From a virus: a stretch of DNA of 64,000 nucleotides. The notes beneath the pieces are model-generated. The model was not told where the DNA came from. It saw nothing but the letters and a program-made list of their open reading frames with translations, and searched no databases. The stretch is taken from positions 1-64,000 of the IMG/VR virus record IMGVR_UViG_3300037258_001214, one strand, 5' to 3'. The position numbers and the translations under genes are program-made. Positions within the stretch are counted from its first letter, which is position 1. The number at the start of each line of letters is the position of its first letter. Positions 358-61,734 of this stretch are shown here, in pieces.

Positions 358-1410
358 GTGACCGAGCTCGAACCTCTCCCGGCCGCCATGCCGGGGACGC
401 TCGCCGCAGTCCGCCGACGCGACGAGAATCCCTACTGGGTATACCTCGCGCGGTTCTCCGGCGAATCGCTCCGGACCATGCGCGGGTGCCTCGACCGGAT
501 CACCGCGATCCTCATGCATCAGCCGCCGGCCATGGCCGTGCCAGGGTTCGGCCAGCAGATCCGGTGGGAACAGATCCGCTACGCGCACGTCGTCCTGCTC
601 CGGACCGAGTTCACCGAGCACTGGTCATCCCCGAGCCACGTCAACAAGCACATGTCCGCGCTCCGCGGCGTGCTGCGCGAGTGCTGGCGGCTGGACCTGA
701 TGACCGCTGAGGACTACCAGCGGGCACGCGATGTCGAAAACATCAAAGGCAGCCGCGAGCCGGCCGGCCGGAACATTCACACCGACGAGATCGCCGTGCT
801 CCTGGGCGCGTGCGGCGCCGGCGAGAACGAGGCCCTCGGCATCCGTGACGCCGCGATCATCGCCGTGCTCCAGTCGACCGGCATCCGGCGGGCCGAGGCC
901 GCGGCCGCGCGGATCGAGCGGTACGACCATGGCGAGCGGACGCTCAAGGTCATCGGCAAGGGGAACAAGGAACGCACCGCCTACATCCACCAGGCCGCGG
1001 TGTCCTACCTTGACCGCTGGCTCGTCACGGTCGGAGCGCGCCGCGGCCCGCTGTTCCGGGGTGTCGACCGCTGGGGGCACGTCGGCACCGAGCCGCTGAG
1101 CGCCCGCGCGATCGGCTACATCCTGAACGAGCGCCGCGAGCAAGCCGGAGTGCCCCGGCTATCGACCCACGACTTCCGCCGCACCTTCATCGGGGACTTC
1201 CTCGACGCCGGCGGCGACCTGGCCCAGGCTCAGAAGCTCGCGGGCCACGCCTCGGCCACCACGACCGCCGCGTACGACCGGCGCCCGGGCCGCGCGCTGC
1301 GTGCTGCTGTCGACCGGCTGAGCCTGCCCGCGCCGGACCAGCTAACGATCCCGTCAGCGCGCCCTGGCCCGGCACCGGGCAGTGCGGCGGCGAGTAGCAG
1401 ACCGCGCTGA
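358..1410 (+). CDS. Tyrosine recombinase/integrase (XerC/D-like)
   Basis: Catalytic motifs RDAAIIAVLQSTGIRRAE (R), GKGNKER (K), HDFRRTF (HxxR), LAGHASATTTAAYD (H, Y). Confidence 0.93.
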   Translation: MTELEPLPAAMPGTLAAVRRRDENPYWVYLARFSGESLRTMRGCLDRITAILMHQPPAMAVPGFGQQIRWEQIRYAHVVLLRTEFTEHWSSPSHVNKHMSALRGVLRECWRLDLMTAEDYQRARDVENIKGSREPAGRNIHTDEIAVLLGACGAGENEALGIRDAAIIAVLQSTGIRRAEAAAARIERYDHGERTLKVIGKGNKERTAYIHQAAVSYLDRWLVTVGARRGPLFRGVDRWGHVGTEPLSARAIGYILNERREQAGVPRLSTHDFRRTFIGDFLDAGGDLAQAQKLAGHASATTTAAYDRRPGRALRAAVDRLSLPAPDQLTIPSARPGPAPGSAAASSRPR

Positions 1411-1585
1411 CCTTTTCCTGCTCGCAGGTTCCGCAGCGCCAGACGTCGTGACCGTTCCGGCCCGACTCCTGGGCGGGCGGGCACATGCACGGCATCCACG
1501 ACCGCTGGAAGCTACCCGGCGCGAAGTAGTGGCCGCGGGGGCAGTCGGCCGGCCCGAGGTCGGGGATGAAGCCATGCCAGGGCAC
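1187..1585 (-). CDS. Cys/His-rich hypothetical protein; in-frame TTA at 1343-1345 near its apparent end
   Basis: CPRGH..CMC..CGTC..HC pattern in the first ~75 aa; after the TTA the frame runs on as Arg/Pro-rich antisense of the integrase. Confidence 0.45.
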   Translation of the reverse strand: MPWHGFIPDLGPADCPRGHYFAPGSFQRSWMPCMCPPAQESGRNGHDVWRCGTCEQEKVSAVCYSPPHCPVPGQGALTGSLAGPARAGSAGRQQHAARGPGAGRTRRSWWPRRGPRASEPGPGRRRRRGSPR

Positions 1586-1684
1586 GTCGATGGTGGTACC
1601 CGGCGTTCCGAACCTGTAATCGAAGGTCAGACGGTCACCGTGTTGTCGAGGAGAGCGCGCGCGCCGTCGGGCAGCTCGGCGCGG

Positions 1685-2542
1685 TCACGGTTCGGTGACC
1701 TCCGCCCAGTCGTCGACCACGATCACGGTGCGCCGGAACACGCGCCCGAAATCGTCGCGGACGGCCTTTATCCGGTTGGCCACCGGCAAAAAATGCTTGT
1801 CTTCAGATGGCCAGACGTGGAAGCCATTGCTGCTGATCTCCTTCGCATACTCGGTGACGACCACGCTGCTGCCGATGCCGAGCACGGCGGCTTCCAGGAC
1901 GCGGCGGACGAGATCCCGGTCCTGGACGTCGACCTCGGCGAGCACTTCCGAGGCGCGGGTCACCATGTCTTCGGTCACGCGAGGATCAGCCACGGCTACA
2001 GCTCTCCCAGCTGTCTAGCGATGTACGCCTCCTGGTCGTCGGTCAGATGATGTCCGGGACCGCCGATTTCCCACCGCATCCACCCGGTATGCCTGAACCC
2101 GGATCGCTTCATCTGGTGGACCTGCCACGGCCACCACGTGAGCCAGGACCAGATCCGCCAGGCGATGAGGGTCGGCCACGACACCATCCGGGCACCCGGA
2201 TCCGGCTTCGGCCCATACGACTCGTCAGCCACGGCCGGTCTCCTCTCGCTGGCGTTCCTCGGCGGCAGCGGCCAGCGCGCGGATCGCCGGGTTGCTGCTG
2301 AGTGTCCGGCCGAACTGGGCGAGCGCCGAGACGATCGGCGTGATCGCGCTGGCCCAGCCTTCGGCCATCGACTTGATCGACGTGTACACCTGGTCGATGG
2401 TGAGCGTCACCTCGGCAAGCCGGACATGCGTCATCAGCTGGCCGGCTGGGCAGACGGGGAAACCATCCGCGTGGATCGGCGCTTGCGGTTCCCCTTCGTG
2501 GGTGCAGTCGGTGCCGTCTGCGTGGATCACTATCGGGGTCAT
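1685..2542 (-). CDS. Three small tightly packed hypothetical phage genes (1685-1993, 1996-2232, 2225-2542)
   Basis: Abutting or overlapping stop/start codons, phage-like composition. Confidence 0.6.
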
Positions 2543-2547
2543 GCCGT

Positions 2548-2754
2548 CTAGCCTTCCCGGTTGAGTATCGCGCCCAGCTCGTCGCGGAGCGCCTGGCGTA
2601 CTTCCTCGCGGATCATGTCGCGCATCTCGGTTTGGGAGGTGTCGTGCTCGGCGGCGTCCAGGCCGCGGCGGATCAGTTCGGCCGGGGTGAGTCCGGACGC
2701 TTTCACGCGGGCGGCCATGTCGTCGGCGAGGTAGATGCTCGTCTTTTGTCCCAT
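2548..2754 (-). CDS. Ribbon-helix-helix (CopG-like) DNA-binding protein
   Basis: MGQKTSIYLADDMAARVKASGLTPAELIRRGL has the beta-strand-helix-helix pattern. Confidence 0.65.
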   Translation of the reverse strand: MGQKTSIYLADDMAARVKASGLTPAELIRRGLDAAEHDTSQTEMRDMIREEVRQALRDELGAILNREG

Positions 2755-2761
2755 GCCCAAA

Positions 2762-2862
2762 GGGTACCGCGTTGTGACGGTATACCGCAACTTATACCGT
2801 CACCATGTTGTGACCATCCTGGGTACCGTTTTATGGCGGTATACCGTCATTATGCGGTATAG
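2762..2862. promoter_or_regulatory. Divergent promoter region with palindromic operators CGGTATACCG (2778-2787, 2837-2846)
   Basis: AT-rich intergenic DNA with two perfect 10-bp palindromes, each preceded by GGGTACCG, 59 bp apart. Confidence 0.65.
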
Positions 2863-6031: not shown

Positions 6032-6033
6032 GG

Positions 6034-16478: not shown

Positions 16479-17078
16479 TCACGACGCCTCCCGGAGGGGG
16501 TGGCAGGACGGGCACCGGCCGGGACTGTCGCCGTCCACGCCGGTCATGCGGGTGTTCTCGTCGCACCGGCCGCACCACGGCGGCCGGCGGGGGGCGCCGC
16601 CTGCGCCGTAGCGCGCAGCGCGGGCGGGCGCCCCCTTCCTTCCCGTAAGGGAAGGGGGAAGGGCATCGTCTTTTAGACCGTCTCTAGACGCTTCATGAGA
16701 CGGTCTATCGACGCGTCTTGAGACGCGTCTCTGCTCTGAACTGATGTTTCGTGTCTTCTCCAGCCATCGTTGCTGGCGCTTCTGCTTCATCTCCCGTTCC
16801 GCGAGCACCCGCTCGCGGGTCGGGTTGCCGTGCGCGAAATACCGCGGCATGTTGAACGACCGACCACCCGGTTCGGTCTCCCAGAGGCCGGCGCCAAGCA
16901 GCTTCTTAATCCACTCCGGGGTGCCGTACTGGGAAGCGATCTCTGTCGGGACATGCCCGTCGAGAAGATGCTCCGCCACGTACGTACCGCACCGGACGTA
17001 GAGCCCGAACGCTGCCGTGCCGGCCCGGACGATCGCCGGGTCATCGTGAAAATCGTCGTCCACCTGGAACCGGGGCAC
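16479..17078 (-). CDS. Putative replication initiator
   Basis: PRFQVDDDFHDDP...AAFGLYVRCG..Y N-terminus typical of actinophage replication proteins; internal DNA repeats; C-terminal CxxC pairs. Confidence 0.65.
   Translation of the reverse strand: MPRFQVDDDFHDDPAIVRAGTAAFGLYVRCGTYVAEHLLDGHVPTEIASQYGTPEWIKKLLGAGLWETEPGGRSFNMPRYFAHGNPTRERVLAEREMKQKRQQRWLEKTRNISSEQRRVSRRVDRPSHEASRDGLKDDALPPSLTGRKGAPARAARYGAGGAPRRPPWCGRCDENTRMTGVDGDSPGRCPSCHPLREAS
16675..16730. repeat. Iteron-like array AGACnn(n)TCT, 5 copies at 11-12 bp period (putative ori)
   Basis: Copies start at 16675, 16686, 16698, 16709, 16721; adjacent inverted repeat at 16631-16658. Confidence 0.65.
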
Positions 17079-17145
17079 GTCTAGCCCCCGTCCCGGTAGC
17101 GCGAGTAGAACGGCACCTGTCACCTTCATCAAGCCTTCGTGCGGG

Positions 17146-17679
17146 TCAGTAGTTCGCTGGTGCGCGGCGCGATGGCCGCTGGGTATGGCGTAGGCGGGTG
17201 AGCTGCTCTCCGCAGCACACGCATCCCTCGTCGTCATCGGCCCCGCCTGGCCAGCGGCGGAACACGTACGCGCCCTGGACCTGGGTCAGCCCGGCCCGCG
17301 ACGGATGCGGATCCCACACCACCCGCCCGCCCTCCCCGGCCACCGCGTGCCGCCCGGCCGGCCGCGGGCTGGTCCCGATGACCACGCACCGCTCATCCGG
17401 CAGGCCGAGGCTGGCCGGTACCCAGCGCCAGTCCAGGGACCGGCCCCGGAGCCACAGGCGGGCCGCCGCGTCCCACCAGGTGAACGCGCCGAAGTGAGGG
17501 ACGGCATCAAGGTCCAGGCCGAGTGCGGACGCCATAGCGGCCTGGAGGCAGTTGCCGTAGACCTCGAGCGCTTCGTGCTCGGGACTCCAGAGGATCGTCT
17601 GCGTGACCTCCCGCAGCGGCCGGCCGTCCATCACGCCGAGCCACGCCGTGGCGGGGAGGTCCCAGGTATGGCCGCCCAT
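17146..17679 (-). CDS. Hypothetical protein, possible papain-like fold
   Basis: GNCLQAAMAS ... RHAV ... WDPHP spacing. Confidence 0.45.
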   Translation of the reverse strand: MGGHTWDLPATAWLGVMDGRPLREVTQTILWSPEHEALEVYGNCLQAAMASALGLDLDAVPHFGAFTWWDAAARLWLRGRSLDWRWVPASLGLPDERCVVIGTSPRPAGRHAVAGEGGRVVWDPHPSRAGLTQVQGAYVFRRWPGGADDDEGCVCCGEQLTRLRHTQRPSRRAPANY

Positions 17680-29460: not shown

Positions 29461-30063
29461 ATGGCCGAGTTTCCCGGCCGGCCTGCCGAGGCGCGGCTGC
29501 TCCTGCGCAAGCGCACCGCCCGCAAGCTCACCCCCGCCCAGGCGGCAGCGCTGGCCGGAGTCTCCCTCTCCACCTACCGCCAGATCGAGAACGGCTACCA
29601 CATCCCTGCCAAGGGCGTCGTGGTCCCGAAGATCGCCCCGGCCGAGACGCTGGCCCAGATGCTCCGCGGATTCGGCGGCACCCCCCGCGAGCTCATCGAC
29701 GCGGGGCGCCCGGACGCGGCGGAAATACTCGAGGGGATCCTGGCCGAGGAGGCAGCCGCGCCCGCCGTAGAGGCGGCGCACCCCGAGGCTGCTGATGCCC
29801 GGACGGCGCGCGCCCGGGCGGTGGCGGCCGGGATCCTGCGCCGCTTCGAGGCCCTTCCGTCCGGCATCGCGCCGGACCAGGCCGGGGCGGTCCTGTTCGA
29901 TGACCGCCGCCTGGCTGCCGCGTGGGACGCGGGCTGGACGGCGAGCCGGGCGGATCTCACCGAGCGGCCGGAACGGGTCGCCTGGGCAGTCGCGGTGATC
30001 CAGGTGCGCCTGGAGGCGGCCGAGCCGGGTTCGCGCGAGGCCTTAGCCGCGCCCCAGGCGTAA
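29461..30063 (+). CDS. Probable immunity repressor (XRE); TTA at codon 195 of 200
   Basis: LTPAQAAALAGVSLSTYRQIENG HTH; TTA at 30043-30045. Confidence 0.75.
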   Translation: MAEFPGRPAEARLLLRKRTARKLTPAQAAALAGVSLSTYRQIENGYHIPAKGVVVPKIAPAETLAQMLRGFGGTPRELIDAGRPDAAEILEGILAEEAAAPAVEAAHPEAADARTARARAVAAGILRRFEALPSGIAPDQAGAVLFDDRRLAAAWDAGWTASRADLTERPERVAWAVAVIQVRLEAAEPGSREALAAPQA

Positions 30064-30240
30064 TGTCCGGATGTAACCAATTGGTAACGTTACGTCCATT
30101 CGATCTTGCGCCGCAATGTGCGCAAGAGATAGGAAAGTTGACGCCCGGGGCCTGCGGGCAGCAAGAAACAAGCCGATCCCGGCGCGGGAGGGAAGAAACA
30201 GGAGCGCCGGGAACGGCCAACAGGGAGGGGACCCCCAGCT

Positions 30241-31212: not shown

Positions 31213-32018
31213 GCGGGACGGCGGCGTAATGCGGGCGGCTTGATCCCGATCCCCGCCAGCACGTACAGCCGGAACGGCTCGCCTCCGGCCAGGGTCAGCC
31301 TGGCGCCCCCCGCCCGCACCGCCGGCCTGACCCCGGGCGGCAGCACCTCCAGGCCCGCGAGAAGGGCGGCAGCCTCGTCCGGGGTGTAGTTCACCAGCGG
31401 GTCCCCGGCGGCCTGCCACGCGCCGCTGAGCCGGCCGAACAGGGCCTCGTCCTCGTTGCAGGTCACGGTGAGGACCACGGCCGACCCGGGCGCCAGTGCC
31501 GAGGCGTACCCGGCGATCACCTCGCGGGCCTGCGCCTGCTCCATGACGTTGGCCACCAGCCCGAAGACCGCGCACACGGGCTCGGCCAGGGCGATGACGT
31601 CGGTCACGGCAGGATGGGCGAGGACCGCCCCCGGGTCCCGGATGTCCGCCGTGGCGACAGAGAAGTTCTTGACCCCCTCGCGGGCCAGCCTGGACCCGTA
31701 CCGGTGCACCGCCCGGTCCCGGTCCACGCACGCCACCCGGGCCTCCGGGCCGGCCTGCTGGGCGGTGTCCCGGACCGACCCGGCAGCGGGGAACCCGGAG
31801 CCGAGGTCGAGGAACTGGGTGATGCCCAGGCGCGATGACGCCAGCAGGACAGCGTGAGCGAGGTAGGCCCGGTTGCTGCGGACCACCCGGCGCACGCCCG
31901 GGTAGATCTCCGCCAGCTGCCTCGCGAGCTGGCGGTCAGGATCGCCGTTGTGGTAGCCGTCCAGCAGGGCGTCGTAGACGCGGGATGGCACCGGCGCGGG
32001 CAGCGTCCGGGGGATCAA
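31170..32018 (-). CDS. Actinobacterial SAM-dependent methyltransferase (Methyltransf_19-like), copy 2
   Basis: SRVYDALLDG, GITQFLDLGSGFP, VACVD, ADIRDP, LAPGS, GIGIKP; TTA at 31227-31229. Confidence 0.85.
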   Translation of the reverse strand: MIPRTLPAPVPSRVYDALLDGYHNGDPDRQLARQLAEIYPGVRRVVRSNRAYLAHAVLLASSRLGITQFLDLGSGFPAAGSVRDTAQQAGPEARVACVDRDRAVHRYGSRLAREGVKNFSVATADIRDPGAVLAHPAVTDVIALAEPVCAVFGLVANVMEQAQAREVIAGYASALAPGSAVVLTVTCNEDEALFGRLSGAWQAAGDPLVNYTPDEAAALLAGLEVLPPGVRPAVRAGGARLTLAGGEPFRLYVLAGIGIKPPALRRRPAQRLRCLPGLSLGP

Positions 32019-33007
32019 AGCGGGTCCGCCTCCTCGGTCGCCCCCCGCTCGTCACCGTACGCCGTGCGGTCGTGCCGGCCGGCCGGCGGATCTCGCGGGG
32101 AGAGAGTCCCATGGGGAGGGATCCCCGCTGGCCATCGCCGGCCGGCCTGGCACGGCCTCCTGGCGCGCGGCACCCCCGGGGGGCATGCAGGGTGCCGCGC
32201 GGTCCGTAAGTCCTCCGCCGCCGGGACGCGTCCCACGCCGGCCAGCACGTGCCCTTCGCGGCGCCGGAACACCGGCTCGGGCTGCCAGGGGCGCCACGTC
32301 TGCGCCTCGCTGACACCGGGGCCCGCCATGGGGAGCCCGGCGAAGAACGACGCGATGTCCTCCCTGCCGTGGTTGACGAACTCCCCGGCGGTGTATTCCC
32401 ACGCCAGCTTCCCGGCCAGGTCCTCGTCGTCGAAAGCCGCCACGGAGATGGCCAGGCAGCTGCCGGGGGCGGCCAGCCGCGCGTACCCCGCGGTCACCTG
32501 CCGGGCCGTGTCAGCGTCCAGGAAGTGCAGCACCGCGGCCAGGATCACGCACACAGGCTCCGCGGGGTCGATGACGGCCCGCAGCTCCGGGTCGGCCAGC
32601 ACCGCGGCGGGGTCGCGCAGGTCCGCCTCGGCGACTGCCACGCGAGGGCCGGCGAGCAGCGCGCGGGCATGCGAGAGCACCACCGGGTCCAGGTCGACAT
32701 AGGCCACCCGCGCCCCCGGCCGGACCGCCTGCGCGGACTGGTGGACCGCTGGAGCAACAGGAAGCCCCGCCCCCAGGTCGATGAACTGGACGATCCCCTC
32801 ACCGGCGGCCCAGGTGACAGCCTCGGCGATGAACGCCCGGTTCTCCCGGGCCATGTCGGCCAGCGGCGGGTAGATCTCCAGCAGCGCGTCGGCCTCGCCG
32901 CGGTCGGAGGGAAAGTGGTCCTTGCCGCCCAGCAGCCGCGAGTACACGCGGGCCGCGTTCGGCGTGGCCGGATCAAACCCGGTCGCGGCCGGATCGAACC
33001 CGGTCAC
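32015..33007 (-). CDS. Actinobacterial SAM-dependent methyltransferase (Methyltransf_19-like), copy 1
   Basis: FDPATPNAARVYSRLLGGKDHF, GIVQFIDLGAGLP, YVDLDPVVLSHARALL, AVLHF; TTA at 32207-32209 just after the family C-terminus. Confidence 0.9.
   Translation of the reverse strand: MTGFDPAATGFDPATPNAARVYSRLLGGKDHFPSDRGEADALLEIYPPLADMARENRAFIAEAVTWAAGEGIVQFIDLGAGLPVAPAVHQSAQAVRPGARVAYVDLDPVVLSHARALLAGPRVAVAEADLRDPAAVLADPELRAVIDPAEPVCVILAAVLHFLDADTARQVTAGYARLAAPGSCLAISVAAFDDEDLAGKLAWEYTAGEFVNHGREDIASFFAGLPMAGPGVSEAQTWRPWQPEPVFRRREGHVLAGVGRVPAAEDLRTARHPACPPGVPRARRPCQAGRRWPAGIPPHGTLSPRDPPAGRHDRTAYGDERGATEEADPL
32164..32201 (-). terminator. 12-bp perfect hairpin starting 5 nt 3' of the TTA in methyltransferase copy 1
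   Basis: cgcgcggcaccc (32164-32175) / gggtgccgcgcg (32190-32201). Confidence 0.55.
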
Positions 33008-33737
33008 CGCGAGCACCGCCCCGGAGTGCCGCAGCACGACGGGTCGCGCCCGGGGCGGCGCGCCCGCCAGGCCACCCTGAGCCGCAGGACCGCCAGCCGC
33101 AGCGGCGCGAAGCTGCTTCTCCTCACTGAGCACGCCCGCCAGCCGGCGCATACGGCCGTGAGCCGCCCGCAGCCGGGGCACCCGTCCGGCCAGACGTTGT
33201 GATCCAGTCCCGGGTCCAGGCACGGGCTGGCCGGGGACGGGTCCTGCATCTGGCAGTACCCGCAGGTAACGGGCCCCCTCACCGTCCGGCCTCCGTCCGG
33301 CCGGCGGTGATCCCGGTGACCCTGCGGGCCCGGTCCCGGTCGACGGCGCCCAGGACACCGCGGAGCACGACCGCGTAGTCCGGGTCGAACTCGGGGCCGA
33401 GCGCGGCGAGCATCTCCTCGCGTGTCCCCTCGGGGTTCGCGTCCCGCCACCCGCCCACCTCGGCGCGGGCCCGGTCAAGGTCGGTCAGCTTCTCGTCCCG
33501 GAATCGCATGGCTCAGCGCCGCCTCCCGTAGCTGACCCGCAGGGCCATTGCCAGCCCGGCCGCGGACGCCCGGGTCAGCACGTGCCCGGTCCGGTCCCTG
33601 CGTGCCGCCTGCCACCGGCCGTCCCCGCAGCCGAAAGCCCAGGTGCTGCCCCAGTCCTCATGCAGCGCTCCGAGCGCCTCGGCCACGGCGGCATCGTCCT
33701 GGCGTGTCTCTCCTGGCTTCTCGTCCCGGAATCCCAT
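33004..33737 (-). CDS. Three small genes (33004-33282 Cys-rich; 33279-33509; 33513-33737)
   Basis: Coupled ORFs; the last two share the N-terminus M(R/G)FRDEK. Confidence 0.6.
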
Positions 33738-33881: not shown

Positions 33882-35084
33882 TAACTCAGCGGGCCGGTAG
33901 TACCGGGCGTACCCGTCCGCGTCGGTGGCCGCGGCGAGTTCCCGCAGCGGGCGCGTCAGTCGCTGCTGCCGTTCGAGCAGTTCCGAGACGAGCTGGCGGG
34001 CGACCCCCTGATGCCGGAACCACGCCGGCGCCATCCCCCTGGCCTGCGACAGGACGGCGACCGCGGCGCCGCTGTGGCGGGCGTCCACGTGCGCCTGGGC
34101 GACGTCGAGGAGATGACGGCCGCGGGAGATCGTGCCGGGCAGGTCGGCGAGGTCCATCTTCCCCGCGGCCTTCAGCGCCTTCCCCGGCTGCCGCTGCACC
34201 GCCCAGGCGTAGGTGGCCTGCATCTGGACCGACGCGGCGGCGAAGCTGGTCCCGTACACCCGGACCCGGTGCCCGATCCGCTCCGCGGCAGCCCCCGCGA
34301 GCCGGATGTAGCCGTCCACGTCCCGGCCCGCCGCCGCGGCCGGGCCGACGGCGGTCATCAGGAGGTTCCCGAAAGCGGCCACATCCTGGTCCGGGCCCGC
34401 GAACGACGGCTCGATCCTCGCCGCTGCCGCGGCCGCGATCGTCTCCGCCTCAGCGAGGCGCCCCTGGTGCAGCAGCGCCCACGCGTACGTGCCCTGCATC
34501 GTGGCGTGCAGCCGCTCGTCATCGCCTTCGGCCGCCGCCGCGATCGCCCGCTCGGCCGCCATCGCGGCGAGGTCTTCCTTCCCCAGGTGGACCAGCAGCG
34601 CCGCCGCCTGGTCGTAAGCCAGCGCCAGCAGCTCGGCTGCTTCCGTCCCGTGCTCGCGCCGTGCTGCCCGCGCGGAGCGGATCAGGGGCGGCAGGACTGC
34701 GGTCAGCCGGGTCAGGTCCCCGGCCCAGTACGACGCCGTCGCATCCTCCACCGCTGCCCTGAGCTGGTCGGGGGCAAGCGGCCCGGAGTCATCCTCCCCG
34801 ACACCGGGGATCACCGACGGCGACAGGATCACATCCCGGAGCGCCAGGACACCCCCGTCGTCGGGGGCGCCGAGCCGGGGGCGCCGGTCGGCCAGCTCCG
34901 ACACGGTGACGTCGAGCGCGTCGGCGATCCTGGCCAGCACGGGGTACCGGGGATAGCGGGTGCCCTGCTCGGTCTTGGCGATCATCTCCGGGCTGATCCC
35001 GGCCCGGGCGGCCAGGTCCTCGCGGGTCAGGGCACGCTCGCGGCGCAGCCTCCGGAGACGGGTTCCCAGCGTGGTATCGTCCAT
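33882..35084 (-). CDS. XRE regulator with TPR-like C-terminal domain; no stop codon, frame passes a TTA (33882-33884) and fuses into the 33513-33737 gene
   Basis: LRRLRRERALTREDLAARAGISPEMIAKTEQG; Ala-rich helical repeats; ends ...YARYYRPAE-TTA. Confidence 0.85.
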
Positions 35085-47881: not shown

Positions 47882-49112
47882 GCCCGTTCCGCAGTCGCCA
47901 GCAGCCGCCTCCGCGGCGGCAGCCGCATCCCGACGCGCGCATTGAGGCCGAGTTCCAGCGGATCATCTCGCTGCGGAAGGCCGTTGCCCGCAAAGAGGGA
48001 CTCGCCGCGAAGGACCACGAGCAGATCACCGCCATGCGAGAGCAACTCGCGCAGCACCCGACATGGGACCGGGCTCCGAAGCTGGCGGCAGCAGGTCGAT
48101 GCGCTCCTGGACGAAGTGGAGGAACTGGACGGCGACGTCACGAAGCTCCACGACGAGATCGCCGCGCGGATCGGCAAGATTGATGACGCCGACCTGGCGT
48201 GGCTGGAAAGCGGTCAGCCATGATCCCCGCCGAGCTGGACCAGATCCGGGACCGCCTCCGTCCGCACGGCCCGCACGTCTGCGATGACCGCTGCACCTGC
48301 CCGGTTCACGGCACGCCGCTGATCTACTGGCCAGCGGGGGACGATCACGCCTGCCGGGACATCACCTGCAAGTACGGACACGGTGGCGCGCTAGCGCCTG
48401 CAGCGGAACCTCCCGCCTCGTAAGCTACAGCTATGGCCGAACCGCGCGAGCTCATCATCACCGACGACGGGGAAGCGCTCTTCTCCGGCCATGTCGGCAT
48501 GCGCGTCCAACTGCCAGCCCAGCAGCTCCGGTGCTCTCCTGACCTCGCCGCCGCGATCCGCGAGCTGGACGCCGCCGCCGAGCCGGGCCGGCCCTCTCCG
48601 TCGCTGCTGATCTTCGGTGCCAGCGAGATCATCGCGGACGAGTCGGTGCTGTCCGGCGACTGGCACCTGGAGCAGGCCGGCCGCGTGATCCAGACCGGAC
48701 ACCTGGATGCAGCCTCGCTAGACTCGGCCGCCTCGTAAGCTACGATTCACCCAGGACGCCTCAGCCGCGTCCGTCCCGCGCTGCAACAGCGCTCAGATGA
48801 TCCCGCAACGGGTGCAAGCCTCACAGGAGATTGCGCCCCGTGCCGGAAACCTTGCCCGCGCCGCCTGATAACAGGCCGTACGTGCCGATGCACGAGCCCG
48901 GGCATGAGATCCGCACGCTATCCCTCGACGGCACCCGCAAGCACCGGTGGAAGCAGGTCGGCTGGCAGGGCCAGACCGGCGCCATCTACGGCCTCGGCGA
49001 GAAGCCGCAGCTGCACGAGCCGGGATCGTTCTCGCCGCTCTACGTGATGGTCGATTCTGACTACGTAGAGCTTCCCTCTGAGCTTTCGAGGGGAGGTGAT
49101 GCAGCGGAATGA
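47878..49112 (+). CDS. Four small accessory genes (47878-48223 with a +1 frameshift near 48079; 48220-48423; 48433-48738; 48831-49112)
   Basis: Coupled ORFs between terL and portal. Confidence 0.55.
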
Positions 49113-50925
49113 GTATGCCTTTCGTCCAGCCGTCAGCCATGCCGACCGGCTCCGCCACGCTCGGAGCACCGATCGGCCTGTCATCGACGCAGCCCATCGA
49201 CGACCGCCAGATGTCCATGCTTCCCGTGGGCAGCCAGCCATGGCCGCCACCGCAATACGATCCGGTCAGCTACCAGCACCGGATCTGGAATGCGTGGTGG
49301 ACCGGGGACCGCCAGATGCTGGCATGGGTTTATTACAACCTCGGAGCCAATTCGCCCTACGGTCGCGCTTTCTTTGCCACTACCGGTGAAAAGGGAATGC
49401 CGATGCCGCGCCCTGGCCAGTACAGGGGCGGCTTGCTGGGCAGTATTGAATACTCGTTCTGGTTAAGTGAGGCGAGCCCGTACCCCCAGGGGAGAAGCGC
49501 ACCCGCCTGCACGTCCCCATCGCCGGCGACATCGCGCAGACCTCCGCGTCGCTGCTGTTCTCCTCGCCGCCCGAGCTGAAGACGACGCTCACCGGGCCGG
49601 AGGGCGTCGCGAACCAGGCGTGGCTCAATGCCCTGATCGACGACGGCTTCCACACGCGGCTCCTGGAGGGCGGCGAGATGTGCGCGGGACTCGGCGGGGT
49701 GTACCTGCGGATCGTGTGGGACACCTCGGTCAGTGACAAGCCCTGGATCCAGCCGGTCTCCGCTGATGTCGCGGTGCCGCAGTTCGCCTACGACAAGCTC
49801 CGGTCGGCGACGTTCTGGCGGGTGCTGGAGGATAACGGATCGGACGTGGTCCGGCACCTGGAGATGCACGCGCCCGGTCAGAACCAGGTCATCCACGGTG
49901 TCTACTCCGGCGGCCAGTCCGACCTCGGCGAGATCGTCCCCATGTCCGATTTCCCGGCCACTGCGCGGATCTTCGCCGACCTGCAGGGCGACACGCTGAA
50001 CCTGCCCAACCTGCCGTTCGACGCGTCCACGGTCACCTACATCCCGAACCTGAAGCCCAACAGGATCTGGCGGGACCTCGGCCCGGAGCTGTGGCCGCTG
50101 GGCCGGTCGGATTTCCAGGGCGTCGAGCCGCTGATGGACGCCCTGGACCACACCTACTCGAACTGGATGCGGGACATCGACCTGGCGGCCATGCGCCTCA
50201 TCGTCCCGGCCGAGTACCTGGACAATATCGGGAGGGGAAAAGGGGCGGTTTTCGAGCCTGACCGCCGCGTGTTCACGCCCCTGTCGATGCTCCACGACGG
50301 AGGCGGCGCGCCGTCGATCACCGCCAACCAGTTCGCGATCCGCTGGCGGGAACATTCCGAGACCTGCCAGGACCTGGCCAACCGCATCGTCCAGGAAGCC
50401 GGGTACAGCGCTCAGTCCTTCGGCGACTACCAGGGCAACGCCCCGACCGCGACGGAGATCGAGGCCCGGGAGCGCACCAGCCTGATGACCCGGAAGAAGA
50501 AGATCCTGTACTGGCGGCCGTCGCTCCAGGACGCCATCTACTCGCTGATGTGCGTGGCCAGGCTGTACTTCGGCGCGTCCGCGATCACGCCGGAACGGCC
50601 GGATATCAACTTCCCCGCCGTGGCGCTCCCCGACGAGCAGGCCCTGGCGCAGACCGTGGCCACGCTGGCAGGCGCCGAGGCTGCGTCGAAGGCCACCTTG
50701 GTCGCGATGGCGCACCCGGAGTGGACGAAAGAAGAAGTCAACGCGGAGGTCCAGCAGATCCGCGCTGAGATCGGCACCGAGCTGGCCGCGCACGCGAAGA
50801 TCGCGCTGGCCCAGCCGCCGGGGACGTCGATCCAGGAGATGGAGGCGGGGCTGGAGCAGATGGCCCCGGTCACCGACGACACGGGTGCAGATGAGGGTAC
50901 CGGCGACCAGGAAGGCGGTTCGTGA
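49109..50925 (+). CDS. Portal protein, split by an 8-nt coding gap at 49463-49470 (~602 aa if joined)
   Basis: 5' frame ends ...IEYSFW; 3' frame resumes GEPVPPGEKRTRLHVPIAGDIAQTSASLLF...GRSDF...TATEI; lies after terL. Confidence 0.88.
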
Positions 50926-52099
50926 TGGCAGATCACTATGACCCGGCGCAGGCGCGGGACAATCGCGGCGAGTGGACCAGCGGCGCGGGCGCGGTGGCGA
51001 GGAACGTCACCGGGAGGGGCGGCGGCCGGAAGGCGGCAGGCCCCCCGAAGGTGAAGAACCCCGGCGGCCGGAACATGTACGCGCGGGACGACACCCCCGA
51101 GTACCAGAAGCGCGAGGGCACCAAGCCGAACATCCACGTTCCGGAGCCGGCTCCGGCGTCGGCGCGGCGCGCCCCGGCGGGCAGCAGGACGGCCAAGCCC
51201 GCTAAGCCGGCCCGCCCGGCCCGGCCGCCGAAGGCCAGGTTCGCCTCGCACGGCACCGGCGCCGCGTCGCAGTCCGGCGGTCCCGGGCCGGTCATCCCGA
51301 AGTGAGGCCGCCATGGGCACGCTGAACGGCAAGCAGCGCAAGGCGCTCCCGAGGGACAGCTTCGCGCTCCCGGGCGGCGGCCCGGCGGGCGCGGACGCCT
51401 ACCCGCTGGCCGGGCCGGACGGCCGGCCGTCGCAGGCGCACGCCGTGGCTGCGCTGGCCCGGGTCGCGAAGAACGGCACCCCGGCGGAGAAGCGCGAGGT
51501 ACGCGCCGCGGTGCGGAAGAAGTTCCCGGGCCTGCCGAGCTCGCAGGGCAACGGCGGCAGCCAGGCGGCCGCGCACAACCAGCGGGTGGACCGGCGGGCC
51601 GGGAAGAGCAGGGCCTCGTGAGCGTCCTCGGCAGGCCCGCGAGCCAGCCTGACAAGCCCGCGACGAAGACCGCCTCGTCGCCGTCGTCCTACCGGATCGT
51701 CGAGGAGGGCCGCAGGTACTGGAGCGACCGCCCGACGAGCACGGGCAAGACCGCCGGGATCGCGTTCGGGACACCGGGCTCGTTCACGGAGTGCGTTGAC
51801 CGCACGACCCCGCACCTCGGCGGGGGCGCCAAGGGTTACTGCGCTGAGCGCTACCACGATGCCACGGGCACGTGGCCGGGCCGGCATGGAGGCAAGTGAT
51901 GGCACCGAAGGCACCCAGGCCCAGGAAGGCGCCGAAGGGCAAGAAGGGCGCAGCGAAGCCCGCGGCGTCCTCATCGGCTCCGCCGCAGTCGGCACCGGCC
52001 GACGCGAAGGCCAACGGGTGGAAGCCGCCGTTCCCCGGTGCTAAGCCCCCGTTCAAGGAGCCCGCGGCGAATCCGGGCAAGAAGGACAGGGGCAAGTGA
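50925..52099 (+). CDS. Four small basic Lys/Pro/Ala-rich proteins (50925-51305, 51313-51621, 51618-51899, 51899-52099)
   Basis: Coupled ORFs; motifs ARDNRGEW, RKALPRDSFALP..YPL, FTECV...KGYCA. Confidence 0.6.
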
Positions 52100-57273: not shown

Positions 57274-58811
57274 ATGCCCGGTCCGGACGTCTTGCCCCCG
57301 CTGGCGTATTTCCAGCACCAGATAGTGCTCATCCCGAAGCAGTTCGGCTACGTGGGCAGCTACACCCGTGGCATGCTCGACGTGGAGCAGGTGCAAGACC
57401 GCGCCTTCGGTCAGATGATGTACCGGTTCACCACCAGCGTCCTGTCCGGGCGTACCGTCACCGAGACGCAGCGGGCGTCGGTCAAGGTGCCTGCCAGCTG
57501 GTGGCAGCACCTGAAGAGGACGGCTGGCGAACGGCACGCGGAATGGATCCGGAAGCCGCACAGCCCGTGGCTGCTGTTCATCCTCCCGCTCGACATCCTC
57601 ACCATCGTGCCCCGCGTCTACCTCGTCCCGTGGTTCCTGCGCCGGCATCCGGTGAGGTACGCCGAGATCACCGCCGAAGTCCGCTTCACGCGCGACACGC
57701 TCTACCCCGGCGCCGATGTCTCGCTTCCGCATGACCGCTTCGGCGTGCCGGTCATGTGGGAGTCGCTGGAGATCGCGCCGATGGCCCCGGACGGCGAGCC
57801 GTGGACGCTGGACGACTATGGGGCGCCGCGCTTCGTCAGCCGCCATGAGCTTCTCGGCGAGATCTACCGGGACACGGACCTGATCAACGCTAGGGGGGCC
57901 TTCGGCGGCATGATCACGCCGGACGGTGTCCTCGACTGGCTCGGCCAGCACGGCGTCAGCGTTGACCAGCTCGTCGCCAGGAGTGCCCTGTGAGCGGGCC
58001 GCGAGGTGCGGCATGAGCCTGACCACCGACCCGGAGGACCTGCGCCTCGGCCGTGGTGCTGACCGGGAGCCTGGCCCGCAGAACACGGCCTACCTGGTCC
58101 TGTCCGACGGGGAGCGCGCCAAGGGCTTCGTGCGGCCGGTGCGGCTGTCCTACCGGCACGCCGGCATCCCCGGCCCGCGCTGGCCGCTCCGCGATCTCAC
58201 CGGCGAGGAGCAGGAACGCTACGCAGGCAGCGGCTACGCCAGGTACGAGGAATACCCGCCTGACGACCTGTCCGCGCTCGGCCGGTTCTGGACCCAGGCG
58301 CAACTCGACGGCATCGGCAAGGGCTGCCGCGCGGTCACGACCATGAACCGGGCCATCGCGGAGACTTACAGCCGCACGCCCGGCTTCTACGGGGCCACCT
58401 ACTGCTGCTCCTGCCGTCTTCACCTGCCCGTGGGGCCGCAGGGAGAGTTCACCTGGATCGAGCCTGACGGGTCGGAGGCGGGGAACCGCGTTGGCACCTG
58501 AGCAGGCGGAGGACGCCTACCCCGTCGCCTACTGTGCTCCCGGCCGGCGCTTCGCCGCCGCGCTCACCCTGATGTTCAAGGGCGAGGAGGTCGCGCGGAT
58601 CGTCGAGCACCCGTGGCTTGAGGGGACCGCGGGCGTCTACGTCGTGGCCGAAGATCGGCTGGACCTGACCAAGCTGCTCCCGGTCAGGTGCGAGGTCTCC
58701 GAGCCGTTGCCGTGGCGTGACCCCAACTGGGTGTACGGGGCGCTCGTGAACACGCCCATACGGGGCATCTGCCCCGCTGTAGGCGTAACGGGCATCTCGG
58801 CGTTACCATGA
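57274..58811 (+). CDS. Three accessory genes between scaffold and capsid (57274-57993, 58013-58501, 58491-58811)
   Basis: Middle gene has YLVLS..ERAKGFVRPVR..AETY..FYGATYC; the last has TTA as penultimate codon. Confidence 0.6.
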
Positions 58812-59049
58812 GCACGACGCACCCCGCGTCCGCGTACAGGCCGCCAGGCCTCGCGGCGGGGAGCGGTAGCCGCCGGAACGGCGAGCAGTCCGCCCGCAAC
58901 GGGTAGCACACCTCACTTGAGCAGGAGCTACCTCTTGCACGCGGTACTCGCCTGAACGGCGGCTTTGCTTTACCCGGAATTGCCGTAACGGCATTTCAAA
59001 TTCACCCGCAACGGGATTCTCGCGAATTCCCTGAAGGGGTGAAATAGAC
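58804..59049 (+). promoter_or_regulatory. Major-capsid leader: TACCAT -10-like box and five G-NAA-C-type hairpins (one imperfect)
   Basis: cgccg-gaa-cggcg 58871; cccg-caa-cggg 58893; cgcc-tgaac-ggcg 58949; tgccg-taa-cggca 58981; cccg-caa-cggg 59005. Confidence 0.7.
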
Positions 59050-59961
59050 TTGACAGTACTCGCGTTTAAGCCAGAAGCGTGGTCGAAGGTAATTCTCGCT
59101 GCCGAGAAGAAGGCACTTGTCTTCGGTGGCCCGGGAATTGTCAACGATGACTACGAGGGCGAAGTGTCGGGACCGGGAACAACGGTCCACATCACGCAGT
59201 TCGGTGACCCGGAAGTCTCCGACTACGCGCCGAATGAGTCCATTGCCTATCAGGAACTGGACGACGCCGGCCAAGAGCTGCTCATCGACCAGCGGAAGTA
59301 TTTCGCGTTCACGATCGACGACGTGGACAAGCGCCAGGCCGCCGGGGACATGCAGTCCTATCTCGAAGACAGGGCGGCATACAAGCTGGCCGACACCGCG
59401 GATCAGTTCATCGCGGGCCTGTACGTCAACTGCGCCAGCGCGAACATCCTCCTGAACAGCGGCACTTCCTCGCTGACCGTCGACAACGAGCTGGCCCCGC
59501 TGACCTACGGCGGCTCCTCGACCAACCCGGCGGACTTCTACCTCCAGGTCGTCCTGCCGCTGAAAGTCAAGCTAGACGAGGCGTACGTCCCGAAGAAGGG
59601 CCGCTACCTCGTCGTCCCGCCGTGGGCGGAAGCGCTGCTGGAGCAGACGCAGGCATTCGTCTCCGTCGCCACTCCCGCGCAGCAGGAGGTATTCACCGAG
59701 GGCCTTATCGGGCGTGTCTCCGGATTCGACGTCTACACGAGCAACAACAGTGTCGAATTCGACCAGGCGAATAACGGCTGGGTCGTTCAGGCGGGCCACC
59801 CGATGGCAATTACTTTCGCGGAGCAGATTGTCCAGACGGAAGCTCTCCGCCTCCAGACGACTTTCGCGGACGCGGTCCGCGGATTGCACGTCTACGGCGG
59901 CCGGCTGGTCCGTCCGGACCACATCGCTGTCGCGGGCGTCAAGCGCCCGGCCGGAATCTGA
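59050..59961 (+). CDS. Major capsid protein
   Basis: FKPEAWS, DYEGEV, GTTVHI, LLIDQRKYFAFTIDDVD, IGRVSGFDVYTSN, DAVRGLHVYG. Confidence 0.92.
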   Translation: MTVLAFKPEAWSKVILAAEKKALVFGGPGIVNDDYEGEVSGPGTTVHITQFGDPEVSDYAPNESIAYQELDDAGQELLIDQRKYFAFTIDDVDKRQAAGDMQSYLEDRAAYKLADTADQFIAGLYVNCASANILLNSGTSSLTVDNELAPLTYGGSSTNPADFYLQVVLPLKVKLDEAYVPKKGRYLVVPPWAEALLEQTQAFVSVATPAQQEVFTEGLIGRVSGFDVYTSNNSVEFDQANNGWVVQAGHPMAITFAEQIVQTEALRLQTTFADAVRGLHVYGGRLVRPDHIAVAGVKRPAGI

Positions 59962-59976: not shown

Positions 59977-60393
59977 ATGTCTCGTACTGCACTGGCCGCT
60001 ATCCAGCTGGCGCATGTCGGCGGCGTCAGCGCCGGGGCCGGGGTCGAACCCGACCACACGAACGGCAACATCGTCGCGTCGCCGGGGCCTTTCCGGTCGC
60101 TGATCGTCGTGGCGAACGCCGGGTCGGCCATCAACCTGATCGTCCGCGCGAGCGGCTACCAGGGCACGCCCACCGGGGCGGCGAACTCCGCCTACACGAC
60201 CGACCAGTACCAGCCGTTCGCCACGGCGAGCATCGGTGACCTGACCTACAGCCTGACCGCTAACGCGACGTCAGTGATCGACCTGGAGGAGGACACCGAG
60301 CGGTTCACCCAGGCGGACGGGTCGATGTGGCTCGACTGGGGGACGCCCACCAACCTCCTGGCCTGGGTGCTCCAGCGGCCGTACATGCCGTAG
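59977..60393 (+). CDS. Probable capsid decoration / virion protein
   Basis: Small beta-rich protein directly after the capsid gene. Confidence 0.55.
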   Translation: MSRTALAAIQLAHVGGVSAGAGVEPDHTNGNIVASPGPFRSLIVVANAGSAINLIVRASGYQGTPTGAANSAYTTDQYQPFATASIGDLTYSLTANATSVIDLEEDTERFTQADGSMWLDWGTPTNLLAWVLQRPYMP

Positions 60394-60423
60394 CGGCATC
60401 ACCGCATGCCGTAGCAGACCTGA

Positions 60424-60461
60424 GCGCGGCCCCGGTTTCCTTCCGGCGGCCGGGGCCGCGC
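60424..60461 (+). terminator. Hairpin after the capsid genes
   Basis: gcgcggccccgg / ccggggccgcgc. Confidence 0.6.
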
Positions 60462-60498
60462 CCAGCCGGAAGAGGTACTACGCAAGGAGGCAACACAG

Positions 60499-60954
60499 AT
60501 GGCCGCAGCAGCGAACGTCGCGGACCTGCCCGTGATCAGGCTGATCAACCCCGCCACCGGGGTCAGCCTGGAATACCAGGGCAGGTGGCTGCGCCCCGGC
60601 AAGGCGAGCATGGCCGACGTGAAGCGGGGCATCGCCCGGTACCCCGGTGACAAGGTGTGGCTCACCCTTCCCCCGGGCGTGCAGAAGCAGCTCGACGCCG
60701 GGCGGCTGCAGGTCGCCGGGGAGTTCGCTGCCCGGGAGAGCATCCAGGCGTCCGGGACCGCTGAGTCGCTGATGCCCAGGGGCAACGCCAGCCACGAGCA
60801 GTGGCTGAGCTTCGCCGTCACCCAGGGGATGGACCGGGAGGAAGCCGCGGGGCTGACCCGGGACCAGATCCGGGCCCGGTTCACTGCGCCCGCGTTCGAC
60901 CCGGACGCGGCACCGCAGGAGATCGGCGCGGATTTCGAATTGCTGAACGGCTGA
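60499..60954 (+). CDS. Head-associated protein
   Basis: C-terminal PRGNASHEQWLSFA...LTRDQI mini-domain. Confidence 0.6.
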   Translation: MAAAANVADLPVIRLINPATGVSLEYQGRWLRPGKASMADVKRGIARYPGDKVWLTLPPGVQKQLDAGRLQVAGEFAARESIQASGTAESLMPRGNASHEQWLSFAVTQGMDREEAAGLTRDQIRARFTAPAFDPDAAPQEIGADFELLNG

Positions 60955-60962
60955 TCTAGCCG

Positions 60963-61721
60963 ATGCCCACCCTGGCGCCGTACAGCAACGCGAGCTCGGA
61001 CGTCTTCCCGGGCGGCCTGCTTGAGCTGATCGTCCAGTTCGAGTCCAGCATGAACTCGGGCCAGGCGTGCGCGGCCAGCGGCGTCACGATCGGCATCACC
61101 CAGTCTGGCGCCCCCGACTCCGGCCAGGGCACGCCGGTGGCCACGACCTCAGCCGGGATCGTCACGCTGGGGATGGGCCTGTACCAGTACACCTGGCCCG
61201 TCCCCGAGAGCACCATGCCGGGCACCTACCTGGTGACGTGGACCGGGGTCCGGGCCAGCGACAGCGAGACGGTCACGTACTCCCAGGCCGCGACGGTCGC
61301 GGCCAACCCGGAGGCCGTCCCGCTGCCCGGCCTGTATGCCAGCGTGGCGCAGTACCGGGCCTGGTCCGGTGACCAGTGGACCCCGGCGCAGCTGGTCCAG
61401 GTGAAACTGCAGCGGGCCACCGAGGACATCGACGTGGCCCTGGTCGCCGCGGTGTACCGCACCGACGCGGACGGCATGCCCTTGGACGCGATGCTGGCCA
61501 ATGTCCTGGTCCGGGCCACCTCGGCGCAGGTGCAGTACCTGCTGGCGGTCAACGACGACAGCGGCATCAAGCGCGAGTTCGCCAGCACCAGCGTGGGCGG
61601 CGTGTCGGCCACCCGGTCGGCGCGGATGCAGGGCGGCGCGCTGCCGCCGCTGGCCCCGCGCGCCCTCTCGATCCTCCGCGTCGCCGGCGTCCTGCCAGCT
61701 GCGCCTCTCATTTCCTGGTTA
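60963..61721 (+). CDS. Probable head-tail adaptor with N-terminal Ig-like domain; apparent end at TGG-TTA-G (61716-61722)
   Basis: YASVAQY, LQRATEDID, RATSAQVQY, LAPRALSILRVAGVL; beyond the TTA the frame is junk overlapping the next gene, which has its own AGGAG RBS. Confidence 0.65.
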
Positions 61722-61734
61722 GGAGCAGCAAGCA

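Follow-up and report, generated by a model that had tools for sequence, protein, structure and literature searches.

The provirus IMGVR_UViG_3300037258_001214 is a 94-kb, metagenome-derived record from IMG/VR with 70.6% G+C, a CheckV completeness of 93% and roughly 154 genes. It represents a phage integrated into a soil actinomycete of high GC content. The window analyzed here is the stretch of 64,000 nucleotides from position 1 to 64,000 of this record. It contains eight in-frame TTA codons, and a preliminary description of this DNA, which had read UUA as a pseudo-terminator, placed all of them at the correct coordinates and on the correct strands. Occurrence of TTA was further assessed by applying a codon-bias gene model to the whole record (29,584 codons). 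This model recovered the eight codons of the window as well as a ninth beyond it, at position 82933 on the minus strand (codon 149 of 166 in the gene at 82879). TTA is the rarest codon of the provirus, with 9 occurrences observed versus 39 expected from position-wise base composition.

Distribution of TTA within genes was strongly skewed. Its mean relative position was 0.79, whereas that of the 2,348 other Leu codons was 0.50 (P = 0.00045 by permutation), and TTA was the most 3′-shifted of all rare codons. No interior TTA was detected in the coding part of confident genes over the 29,584 codons of the provirus, and none was aligned to a conserved internal Leu. Three apparent interior codons (51203, 86171 and 75047) were rejected as they fall in antisense shadow ORFs. 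When ORFs were ranked by the length of their non-coding tails, four of the top five carried a TTA near the end of the coding signal; the remaining one encodes a real linker-plus-zinc-ribbon protein. TTA ends only about 5-8 of the roughly 154 genes; the others end in TGA, TAG or TAA.

One TTA is located at the end of a head-tail adaptor gene (60963..61718, plus strand; 252 codons up to a conserved C-terminal Trp), which matches phrog_541, phrog_33358 and phrog_17896, with these profiles ending at residues 245-254. The codon itself (61719..61721, plus strand, context TGG TTA G) occupies the position of the stop codon in homologs: all 18 homologs examined end at, or no more than 2 residues from, the conserved Trp, followed by a true TGA or TAG. 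The junction is TGG TAG in relatives L012 and L021 and TGG TGA in L013 and L019, and TGA or TAG was present in 12 of 12 Streptomycetaceae prophage adaptors. Coding potential in the adaptor frame is strong up to about 61650. Past the TTA, this frame remains open for 280 codons, overlapping the next gene and ending at 62564, and its coding score there is strongly negative. The next gene (61735-62364) is in a different frame and has its own GGAG and ATG, the GGAG being directly 3′ of the UUA-G, which is 13 nt before the ATG at 61735. The JGI protein P0128 is also an adaptor, whose nearest relative is L013 (with TGA at this position). In this protein, the terminal Trp is directly followed by Leu and then by read-through of the intergenic leader.

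The TTA of a small Cys-rich gene (1343..1345, minus strand) follows ...GALTGS, and the gene spans 1585 down to 1346. Seven homologs, 66-86% identical, were found for this protein, four of which stop exactly at the TTA position. Coding potential ceases 3 codons ahead of the TTA, and the run-on of 51 codons traverses the end of the integrase gene in antisense orientation.

Two Methyltransf_19 paralogs on the minus strand also carry TTA. In paralog 1 (MTase 1), the codon (32207..32209) follows ...AGVGRVPAAED, and the Pfam PF04672 profile ends at 267/268, 6 residues ahead of it. Homologs of this protein are 256-257 aa long and up to 83% identical; they stop 2-5 codons ahead of the TTA, and the homolog in L066 ends with ...GVGRVR, then TAG. 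Coding potential ceases 1 codon ahead of the TTA, and the run-on consists of 63 non-coding codons that contain a 13-bp hairpin. Two methyltransferase homologs, P0006 and P0129, have Leu and a run-on directly after GVGRV; like P0128, they would point to recurrence or persistence of terminal TTA. In paralog 2 (MTase 2), the TTA (31227..31229) is codon 264, after ...LAGIGIKPPA. The VLAG-x-G motif aligns with that of paralog 1, and Pfam profile arithmetic places the end of the family at about residues 261-264, approximately at the TTA. The coding boundary is 4 codons ahead of it, and the run-on of 18 codons overlaps the convergent gene 30241-31212.

The TTA of an XRE regulator (33882..33884, minus strand) is located 8 codons beyond the end of homologous XRE regulators. 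The phrog_5823 profile reaches position 399/404, 15 residues ahead of the codon, and homologs from phiHau3 (gp52), Euratis and P1312 end with ...LGVAA or ...LGVAG. The frame then has no stop for 122 codons, passing through ~140 nt of non-coding-looking sequence before a separate small gene (33737-33513) with its own GGGAGGG and ATG. Downstream coding potential shows a dip between 33700 and 33870, then recovers.

Two further codons are ordinary sites that need no special explanation, since real stops follow 5 and 1 codons later: 30043..30045 (plus strand), codon 195 of 200 in an HTH repressor-like gene that ends with TAA, and 58803..58805 (plus strand), the penultimate codon of gene 58491-58811, followed by TGA. 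These two ordinary cases among the eight sites weaken the earlier interpretation. Proximity of TTA to natural C-termini is nevertheless more pronounced than first described and is borne out by the permutation result, the stops of homologs and the intact gene interiors, and the pattern is non-random over the whole provirus. The five run-ons, described previously as ~18-280 codons long, are exactly 18, 51, 63, 122 and 280 codons, and they behave as non-coding sequence that no homolog conserves as protein. The proposal that the recognizable domain ends right at the TTA in five genes is exact for the adaptor and, by four of seven homologs, the Cys-rich gene, where true stops of homologs align with the codon; it is approximate for MTase 2, and in MTase 1 and the XRE regulator the homologs end a few codons earlier.

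The remaining TTA, in the portal gene, had been set apart as the sole exception. Its position is confirmed, but it is not an ordinary internal Leu, since it heads a frame-breaking 8-nt gap, TTAAGTGA (49463..49470, plus strand, TTA at the 5′ end). The portal gene is split by this gap, with 49109-49462 in one frame and 49471-50925 in another. The gap is absent in 10 relatives (L003, L004-L010, L019 and L021), in which portal residues ...FW and G.P..PPGEK are contiguous. Two relatives have TTA-led 10-nt gaps of their own, TTACCAATGC at the same site in L022 and TTAGCGGGTC at a different site in L003. The last triplet of each of the three gaps agrees with the take-off codon in the first two bases (UGG to UGA in the provirus, UGG to UGC in L022 and GUU to GUC in L003); the chance of three matching landing codons is about (1/16)^3. 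On the predicted gene structure, the portal shows that UUA must not be decoded in this same phage, with independent TTA-led gaps in L022 and L003.

Such gaps have a published counterpart. Streptomyces phage phiHau3 and two prophages have UUA-led coding gaps in the gene for the large terminase, described as candidate sites of translational bypassing (Smith et al. 2013, as cited in PMC10732093; Antonov et al. 2023, PMC10732093). Both cases involve a high-GC actinomycete phage, a rare UUA and a functional product when UUA is undecoded, and the portal gap of the provirus (TTA plus 5 nt, with a landing triplet matching the take-off codon) is exactly of this kind, although it is in the portal rather than the terminase gene. 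A TTA-led insert with contiguous flanks and a matching landing triplet was found at the portal site only. In contrast, the terminal TTAs restore no frame, replace stops and occur in several genes, including those on the lysogeny side. At none of the eight terminal TTAs does a downstream frame continue the protein, unlike in a coding gap.

Since TTA is never inside genes and is located either at the stops of relatives or at the opening of the portal gap, UUA seems to mark sites where ribosomes stop or jump and do not add leucine. We estimate a probability of about one half that UUA serves as a conditional pseudo-stop, placed only where failed decoding would still give the right product. This would be a hungry-codon effect, dependent on a scarce or uncharged single cognate tRNA, the bldA-type tRNA-Leu(UAA). 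In at least five genes (adaptor, Cys-rich, both MTases and XRE), the terminal UUA would replace the stop codon or be located just past the natural end. If the tRNA is scarce, a ribosome at a terminal UUA would have finished its protein and would stall there, the chain being freed by a slow route; candidates are drop-off, rescue factors and, at the four TTAG sites, recognition of the overlapping +1 UAG by RF1. In the portal, the gap opened by UUA would be hopped over. If the tRNA is plentiful, the ribosome would read through, adding 5-280 junk residues; the XRE regulator would be fused to the next small ORF, and the reading frame of the portal would be lost. Whereas the positions of the TTAs, the stops of homologs, the loss of coding signal and the portal gap are observed, the non-decoding of UUA, the route of release and any regulatory purpose are inferred. 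A random stop-loss mutation would yield TTA in only about 1/8 of cases, whereas every case here is TTA. The pseudo-terminator reading of UUA in the preliminary description is partly supported.

Several observations argue against a pseudo-stop. Stalling on a sense codon would be expected to bring tmRNA tagging and degradation and no functional protein. In addition, no phage-encoded tRNA, RF-1 domain or peptidyl-tRNA hydrolase domain was found in the provirus, and neither a sequence or structure common to the terminal TTAs nor a consistent landing-then-stop design at them could be detected. The terminal-TTA trait is lineage-specific, since the closest available relatives (L003, L012 and L013) have ordinary stops. 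Plausible genes with internal TTA were found in relatives L019 and L020 and in the metagenome-assembled genome (MAG) of the host of L022.

A broader reading is less likely than not. In a group of phages of high-GC actinomycetes, UUA might truly signal the end of a gene, as a sense codon recruited repeatedly and independently as a terminator in some genes and as a hop trigger in others. The phage proteome would then be correct only in cells that do not read UUA, and this might be the first case of a bacterial virus using a sense codon much like a stop, as well as a virus-wide read-out of one host tRNA. If UUA truly ends translation, annotation of high-GC phages and prophages would be systematically wrong at such sites, in the form of run-on ORFs, fused genes and supposed pseudogenes. 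If true, it would also broaden a little-known hypothesis of UUA bypass, built on three terminase genes, into the rule that UUA flags positions at which leucine must not be inserted. These sites bear on what becomes of a ribosome that has completed its protein and stalls on a sense codon, and on whether phages sense the developmental state of a Streptomyces-like host through bldA.

It is also conceivable, but rather unlikely, that UUA is unassigned or a true terminator in the host, which would lack a functional tRNA-Leu(UAA) or have a dedicated release route. A change from stop to TTA would then be effectively synonymous, with nothing conditional or sensory about it. NCBI table 23, in which TTA is a stop in Thraustochytrium mitochondria, is a precedent. 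As in codes of that type, TTA of the provirus ends frames, does not occur at conserved sense positions and coincides with stops of homologs; unlike in those codes, TTA ends only a minority of genes, and the genome is that of a bacterial virus rather than an organelle. Evidence of a lost tRNA or a changed release factor was not found. Reading TTA as stop fits the provirus without exception, and the terminal cases are all one mutational step from TGA or TAA. Moreover, no tRNA-Leu(UAA) was detected in the 7.1-Mb MAG carrying L022, either with the Rfam tRNA model or by BLAST with a Streptacidiphilus bldA homolog, and Streptacidiphilus carbonis, which has tRNA-Leu(UAA), carries a prophage (L021) with neither a gap nor a terminal TTA. 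However, the same MAG is also without detectable tRNA-Leu(UAG), yet CTA was present 402 times in 105,333 sampled codons. Since CTA is used and TTA occurs inside plausible genes, the tRNA set of this MAG appears incomplete, and UUA is probably read there. The small number of genes ending in TTA also argues against a reassigned code, and we know of no release factor that reads UUA.

Ordinary bldA-dependent leucines in real C-terminal extensions are an improbable explanation. Under it, TTA would gather in poorly constrained tails, as in other horizontally acquired actinomycete genes. The gene classes fit: the codon and presumably the single tRNA are those of the classical system, in which TTA genes are mostly accessory or regulatory, and six of the nine TTA genes here (repressor, XRE, two MTases, Cys-rich and the gene at 82879) are lysogeny-side or accessory, a class that typically carries TTA. 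In addition, a real stop follows within 1-18 codons in four genes, and C-termini of the Cys-rich and MTase families differ in length by a few residues. The extensions themselves fit poorly. That of the adaptor is long, out of frame across the next gene and negative in coding score, those of XRE and MTase 1 cross intergenic-looking sequence (hairpins, RBS, rare codons), and no homolog has any of them as protein. In the classical system, TTA is decoded as a leucine inside the protein, and TTA codons of hosts are reported to lie preferentially toward the 5′ end of genes (PMC2635970). A Leu within the mature protein, aligned to sense residues of homologs, was not found in the adaptor and Cys-rich proteins, where TTA is at the stops of homologs, or in MTase 1, MTase 2 and XRE, where it is beyond their ends; the repressor TTA may be such a leucine.

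A +1 shift at a hungry UUA, one of the routes suggested in the preliminary description, also appears improbable. It would place the overlapping UAG or UAA in the A site, for release one base off-frame by a release factor. TTAG is present at four terminal sites (1343, 30043, 61719 and 82933), and the UAG at the adaptor would restore the C-terminus of homologs exactly. The same idea has been published for the upstream ORF of Streptomyces adpA, where UUA followed by G or A gives a +1 stop and is 5-6 nt before the main start codon (PMC10732093). Similarly, UUA is at the 3′ end of an ORF just 5′ of the next start at the adaptor (13 nt) and at 58803 (UUA-C, 2 nt before an ATG). However, adpA has a real in-frame stop two codons on, as opposed to none for 280 codons in the adaptor, and most terminal TTAs of the provirus are not near a downstream start: apart from these two, the next start codon is 140-190 nt away or a convergent gene is faced. 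The other four terminal sites (31227, 32207, 33882 and 58803) are TTAC and have no +1 stop, and the P-site codons (UGG, UCG, GCC and CCC) are unable to re-pair in the +1 frame. The +1 route can thus apply to only four of the eight terminal sites, and +1 stops are no more frequent than expected by chance, since the base after TTA is a purine at 5 of the 9 codons and 61% of bases at codon position 1 are purines.

An artifact of assembly or base calling (TAA or TGA read as TTA, or a T inserted before TAG), or a decaying prophage that gathers stop-loss and frameshift lesions, is very improbable: although the record is metagenome-derived and incomplete by CheckV, and TGGTTAGG differs from TGGTAGG of L012 and L021 by a single T, neither process would give TTA every time with every gene interior intact, two other assemblies have independent counterparts of the 8-nt portal insert, both with landing codons that match, and proteins from other samples (P0128, P0006 and P0129) show Leu and a run-on at the same ends.

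The ordinary site at 58803 has a feature of its own. It is located at the edge of a block conserved in L003, with DNA homology to L003 starting at 58799 (TTACCATGA in the window versus TTATGATC in L003), and this block contains a -10-like box followed by hairpins. This TTA probably belongs to a promoter or leader element overlapping the end of the gene.

TTA is the rarest codon of this provirus: position-wise base composition predicts 39 in-frame occurrences, and nine were observed. The window covers the first 64 kb of a record of 94,375 bp (70.6% G+C), classed as a provirus in IMG/VR with a completeness of 93% (CheckV) and a tyrosine integrase gene (358-1410) at its left end. The nearest named relatives of the structural genes are Streptomyces phages, and related prophages are present in Streptacidiphilus carbonis and in metagenome-assembled genomes (MAGs) of Pseudonocardiaceae and other Actinomycetota. 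No DNA-level relatives were found among cultured phages, and no close relatives of the head-tail adaptor, the gene that follows it, the XRE regulator or methyltransferase (MTase) 1 were found in IMG/VR. A self-trained codon-bias gene model gave 154 genes (29,584 codons), and coding potential was examined at each of the 175 TTA triplets present on the two strands. All eight in-frame TTAs of the preliminary description were recovered at their places, and a ninth was detected outside the window at 82933 (- strand); matches in gene interiors were confined to antisense shadow ORFs. Its claim that TTAs cluster at gene ends was borne out, as each in-frame TTA in a real gene lay 1-12 codons past the end of the coding signal. 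The single variant was the XRE gene, whose TTA coincides with a dip in coding signal, with a second gene then following in the same frame. When permuted against the other Leu codons, TTA had a mean relative position of 0.79 versus 0.50 (P = 0.00045), and its distribution was the most 3′-shifted among rare codons. This was not explained by rare codons being 3′-biased in general: CTA, AGT and CGA showed a slight bias, which arises partly from the run-on tails themselves, and TTA was a clear outlier. A coding-boundary distance test with the test codon masked was unstable, and its result was set aside. Chromosomal TTAs in Streptomyces are reported to occur mostly near gene 5′ ends (PMC2635970), and TTA placement in this phage reverses that usual host pattern.

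ORFs were also ordered by the length of the low-scoring tail ahead of their stop codon. Four of the five top-ranked ORFs had a TTA near the end of the coding signal. The fifth (16479-17237, - strand), the sole gene without TTA to have a long low-scoring tail, encodes a real protein, in which a C-terminal zinc ribbon (PPWCGRCD...CPSCHP) is accompanied by a basic, AT-richer linker. Wherever a stop was replaced by a sense codon, that codon was TTA, with no other sense codon found in this position in any gene, and TTA would be expected from about 1/8 of one-step stop-loss mutations. There is good support for the view that TTA, and TTA alone, has replaced stop codons in several of the phage's genes.

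For the head-tail adaptor (60963-61718, TTA at 61719), true stops at or close to the TTA position were found in all homologues compared. The adaptors of phages SoJo and Ignacio end in ...LLPGVIW followed by a stop, at the point where this phage has ...PLISW followed by TTA; four closer relatives read ...APL(I/V)(S/N)W and then TAG, TGA, TGA and TAG, respectively. Twelve further adaptors from 401 Streptomycetaceae genomes had TGA or TAG in every case, no more than two residues from that Trp, and no match was obtained when adaptor ends were searched for the pattern W-TTA. Past the TTA, the frame stays open for 280 codons through the following gene and scores strongly negative for coding; the following gene has a GGAG of its own and an ATG 13 nt 3′ of the TTA.

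Natural C-termini at the TTAs of other genes had likewise been proposed, with results that differed in precision. For the Cys-rich gene (1585 down to 1346, TTA at 1343), homologous stops matched the TTA exactly in four of seven homologues (66-86% identical) and fell within 1-6 residues of it in the others. In MTase 1 (TTA at 32207), the natural end is near the TTA but not exactly at it: the Pfam profile ends six residues ahead, and more than 100 close homologues, 254-260 aa long, stop 2-5 codons earlier. L066 reads ...GVGRVR and then TAG. The same motif arithmetic places the end of its paralogue MTase 2 approximately at the TTA (31227), as claimed. The XRE regulator (TTA at 33882) also ends near its TTA rather than at it, as profile phrog_5823 and three phage homologues, phiHau3 gp52 among them, end eight residues earlier. 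The 140 nt past this TTA look intergenic, with rare codons followed by a ribosome-binding site, GGGAGGG, which belongs to a 74-codon ORF (MGFRDEKPGE..., 33513-33737, - strand). This ORF is in the frame of the regulator with no stop codon between them, and read-through of the TTA would fuse the two.

Similar Leu residues were detected in metagenome proteins. Among 5.8 billion proteins, the sole long one to match the adaptor read-through ORF was P0128 (a JGI metagenome protein, 307 aa), in which an adaptor ending in ...APLVAW is followed by Leu and then by a recognizable translated intergenic leader. P0128 is closest to the adaptor of L013 (85%), whose stop is TGA, and for the adaptor of this phage the closest is L012 (83%), whose stop is TAG; because the closest relatives differ, the two Leu-for-stop events look independent. 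TTA is the only Leu codon that can be reached from TGA in one step. P0128, for which the Leu is known from the protein alone, is probably an independent TGA-to-TTA change. In addition, ...GVGRV is immediately followed by Leu and an Arg/Pro-rich run-on in two MTase homologues (P0006 and P0129, 75-76% identical), and a homologue of the Cys-rich protein (P0123) has Leu immediately after ...TRS. These cases may represent recurrence and are best regarded as leads, not proof.

The portal TTA (49463) had been set apart as an exception to the C-terminal rule. It is indeed internal, but it heads an 8-nt coding gap that is absent from relatives. L003, a related phage whose portal is 78% identical, aligns as DNA over 49087-50931 minus exactly the eight nucleotides TTAAGTGA at 49463-49470, and ten relatives have an uninterrupted portal gene in which ...FW directly adjoins G.P..PPGEK in a single frame. 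L022, a prophage (portal 51% identical) within a MAG contig of 5.7 Mb, has a different TTA-led 10-nt insert, TTACCAATGC (L022:9991-10000), at the same Trp|Gly junction, and L003 has its own, TTAGCGGGTC (L003:5144-5153), elsewhere in the portal gene. Each of the three inserts ends in a triplet whose first two bases are those of the codon preceding the TTA (UGG/UGA, UGG/UGC and GUU/GUC), for which the probability by chance is about (1/16)^3. The phiHau3 terminase gene has been proposed to undergo UUA-triggered bypassing by this same design (PMC10732093). The portal gap shows that lytic growth of the phage would require UUA not to be decoded. In another MAG relative (L020), two N bases and a frame break occur exactly at the position of the L003 gap (L020:9863-9864), and an insert may be hidden there.

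The reading that we favor, with a probability of about 0.5, is that UUA acts as a hungry-codon pseudo-stop dependent on scarcity of a bldA-type tRNA; the logic proposed for the phiHau3 gaps would then apply to gene ends as well. No tRNA genes are encoded in the record, and the literature searched yielded nothing on TTA at gene ends. The main competing explanation, that UUA is constitutively unassigned or stop-like in the host, is appreciably less probable. In the MAG containing L022, no tRNA-Leu(UAA) was detected by covariance model or BLAST, and the tRNA-Leu genes among 49 tRNA matches were CAA, GAG and CAG only; however, tRNA-Leu(UAG) was also undetected there even though CTA is used freely, and some TTAs occur inside plausible genes. 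Candidates were picked by length, which would miss type I tRNA-Leu genes, a type also reported in S. coelicolor (PMC6614811). Streptacidiphilus carbonis does have tRNA-Leu(UAA).

It is unlikely that the TTAs are ordinary leucine codons followed by real extensions, a reading against which the strongly negative coding score of the adaptor run-on counts. Two sites do look ordinary: the repressor TTA (30043) is followed five codons later by a real TAA, and that at 58803 is the penultimate codon of its gene. A block beginning right at the latter (58799-58906) has 78% DNA identity to L003:10591-10700, with a -10-like box (TACCAT, TATGAT in L003), a possible 32-codon ORF (58808-58906) and hairpins with loops CGGAACGG and CCCGCAACGGG; rather than a gene, the block may represent a late promoter or leader. 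In the relative L009 (portal 56% identical), TTA is the last codon of a 184-codon gene (GGT TTA TGA, L009:16122).

A +1 shift as the general route is similarly doubtful. A following G or A had been thought to create +1 stops, and such a base is present in 5/9 cases; because codon position 1 is already 61% purine, there is no enrichment. A +1 stop could nevertheless act at the four terminal sites with TTAG, and at the adaptor it would produce exactly the C-terminus of the homologues; the idea of an overlapping +1 stop at UUA has also been published for the upstream ORF of adpA. Neither an RF-1 nor a peptidyl-tRNA hydrolase domain is encoded by the phage. Hop-to-stop was rejected, as terminal sites had no consistent landing codon and stop, and the gap-like GAC-TTACG-GAC of MTase 1 leads into 49 non-coding codons and was judged a chance occurrence. 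Scars of mobile elements, for instance of IS200/IS605, which inserts after TTAC, were dismissed, since post-TTA sequences share only 10-13-nt chance matches, and no downstream sequence common to terminal TTAs was found. Antisense ORFs whose stops would be complementary to TTA (30043-30786, 31835-32209 and 58803-59144) had no coding signal.

Artefact or decay is very improbable; the portal gap with its counterparts in relatives makes sequencing error unlikely for the TTAs as a class.

No common RNA structure was found at the TTAs (fold z-scores about 0, none significant), the exceptions being a palindrome past the real stop of the repressor and a hairpin past MTase 1. The latter (32145-32200, - strand) is a perfect 13-bp hairpin, GCGCGGCACCCUG ... 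CGGGGGUGCCGCGC, that begins 5 nt past the TTA and includes an 8-mer, CGCGGCAC, noted in the preliminary description as a clt-like repeat near traB. At the right end of the provirus, beyond the window, a single open frame (L018:8759-10375; genome 92759-94375) contains a LacI-type HTH followed by the catalytic C-terminal portion of a tyrosine recombinase, and resembles a junction or a remnant at the edge of the prophage.
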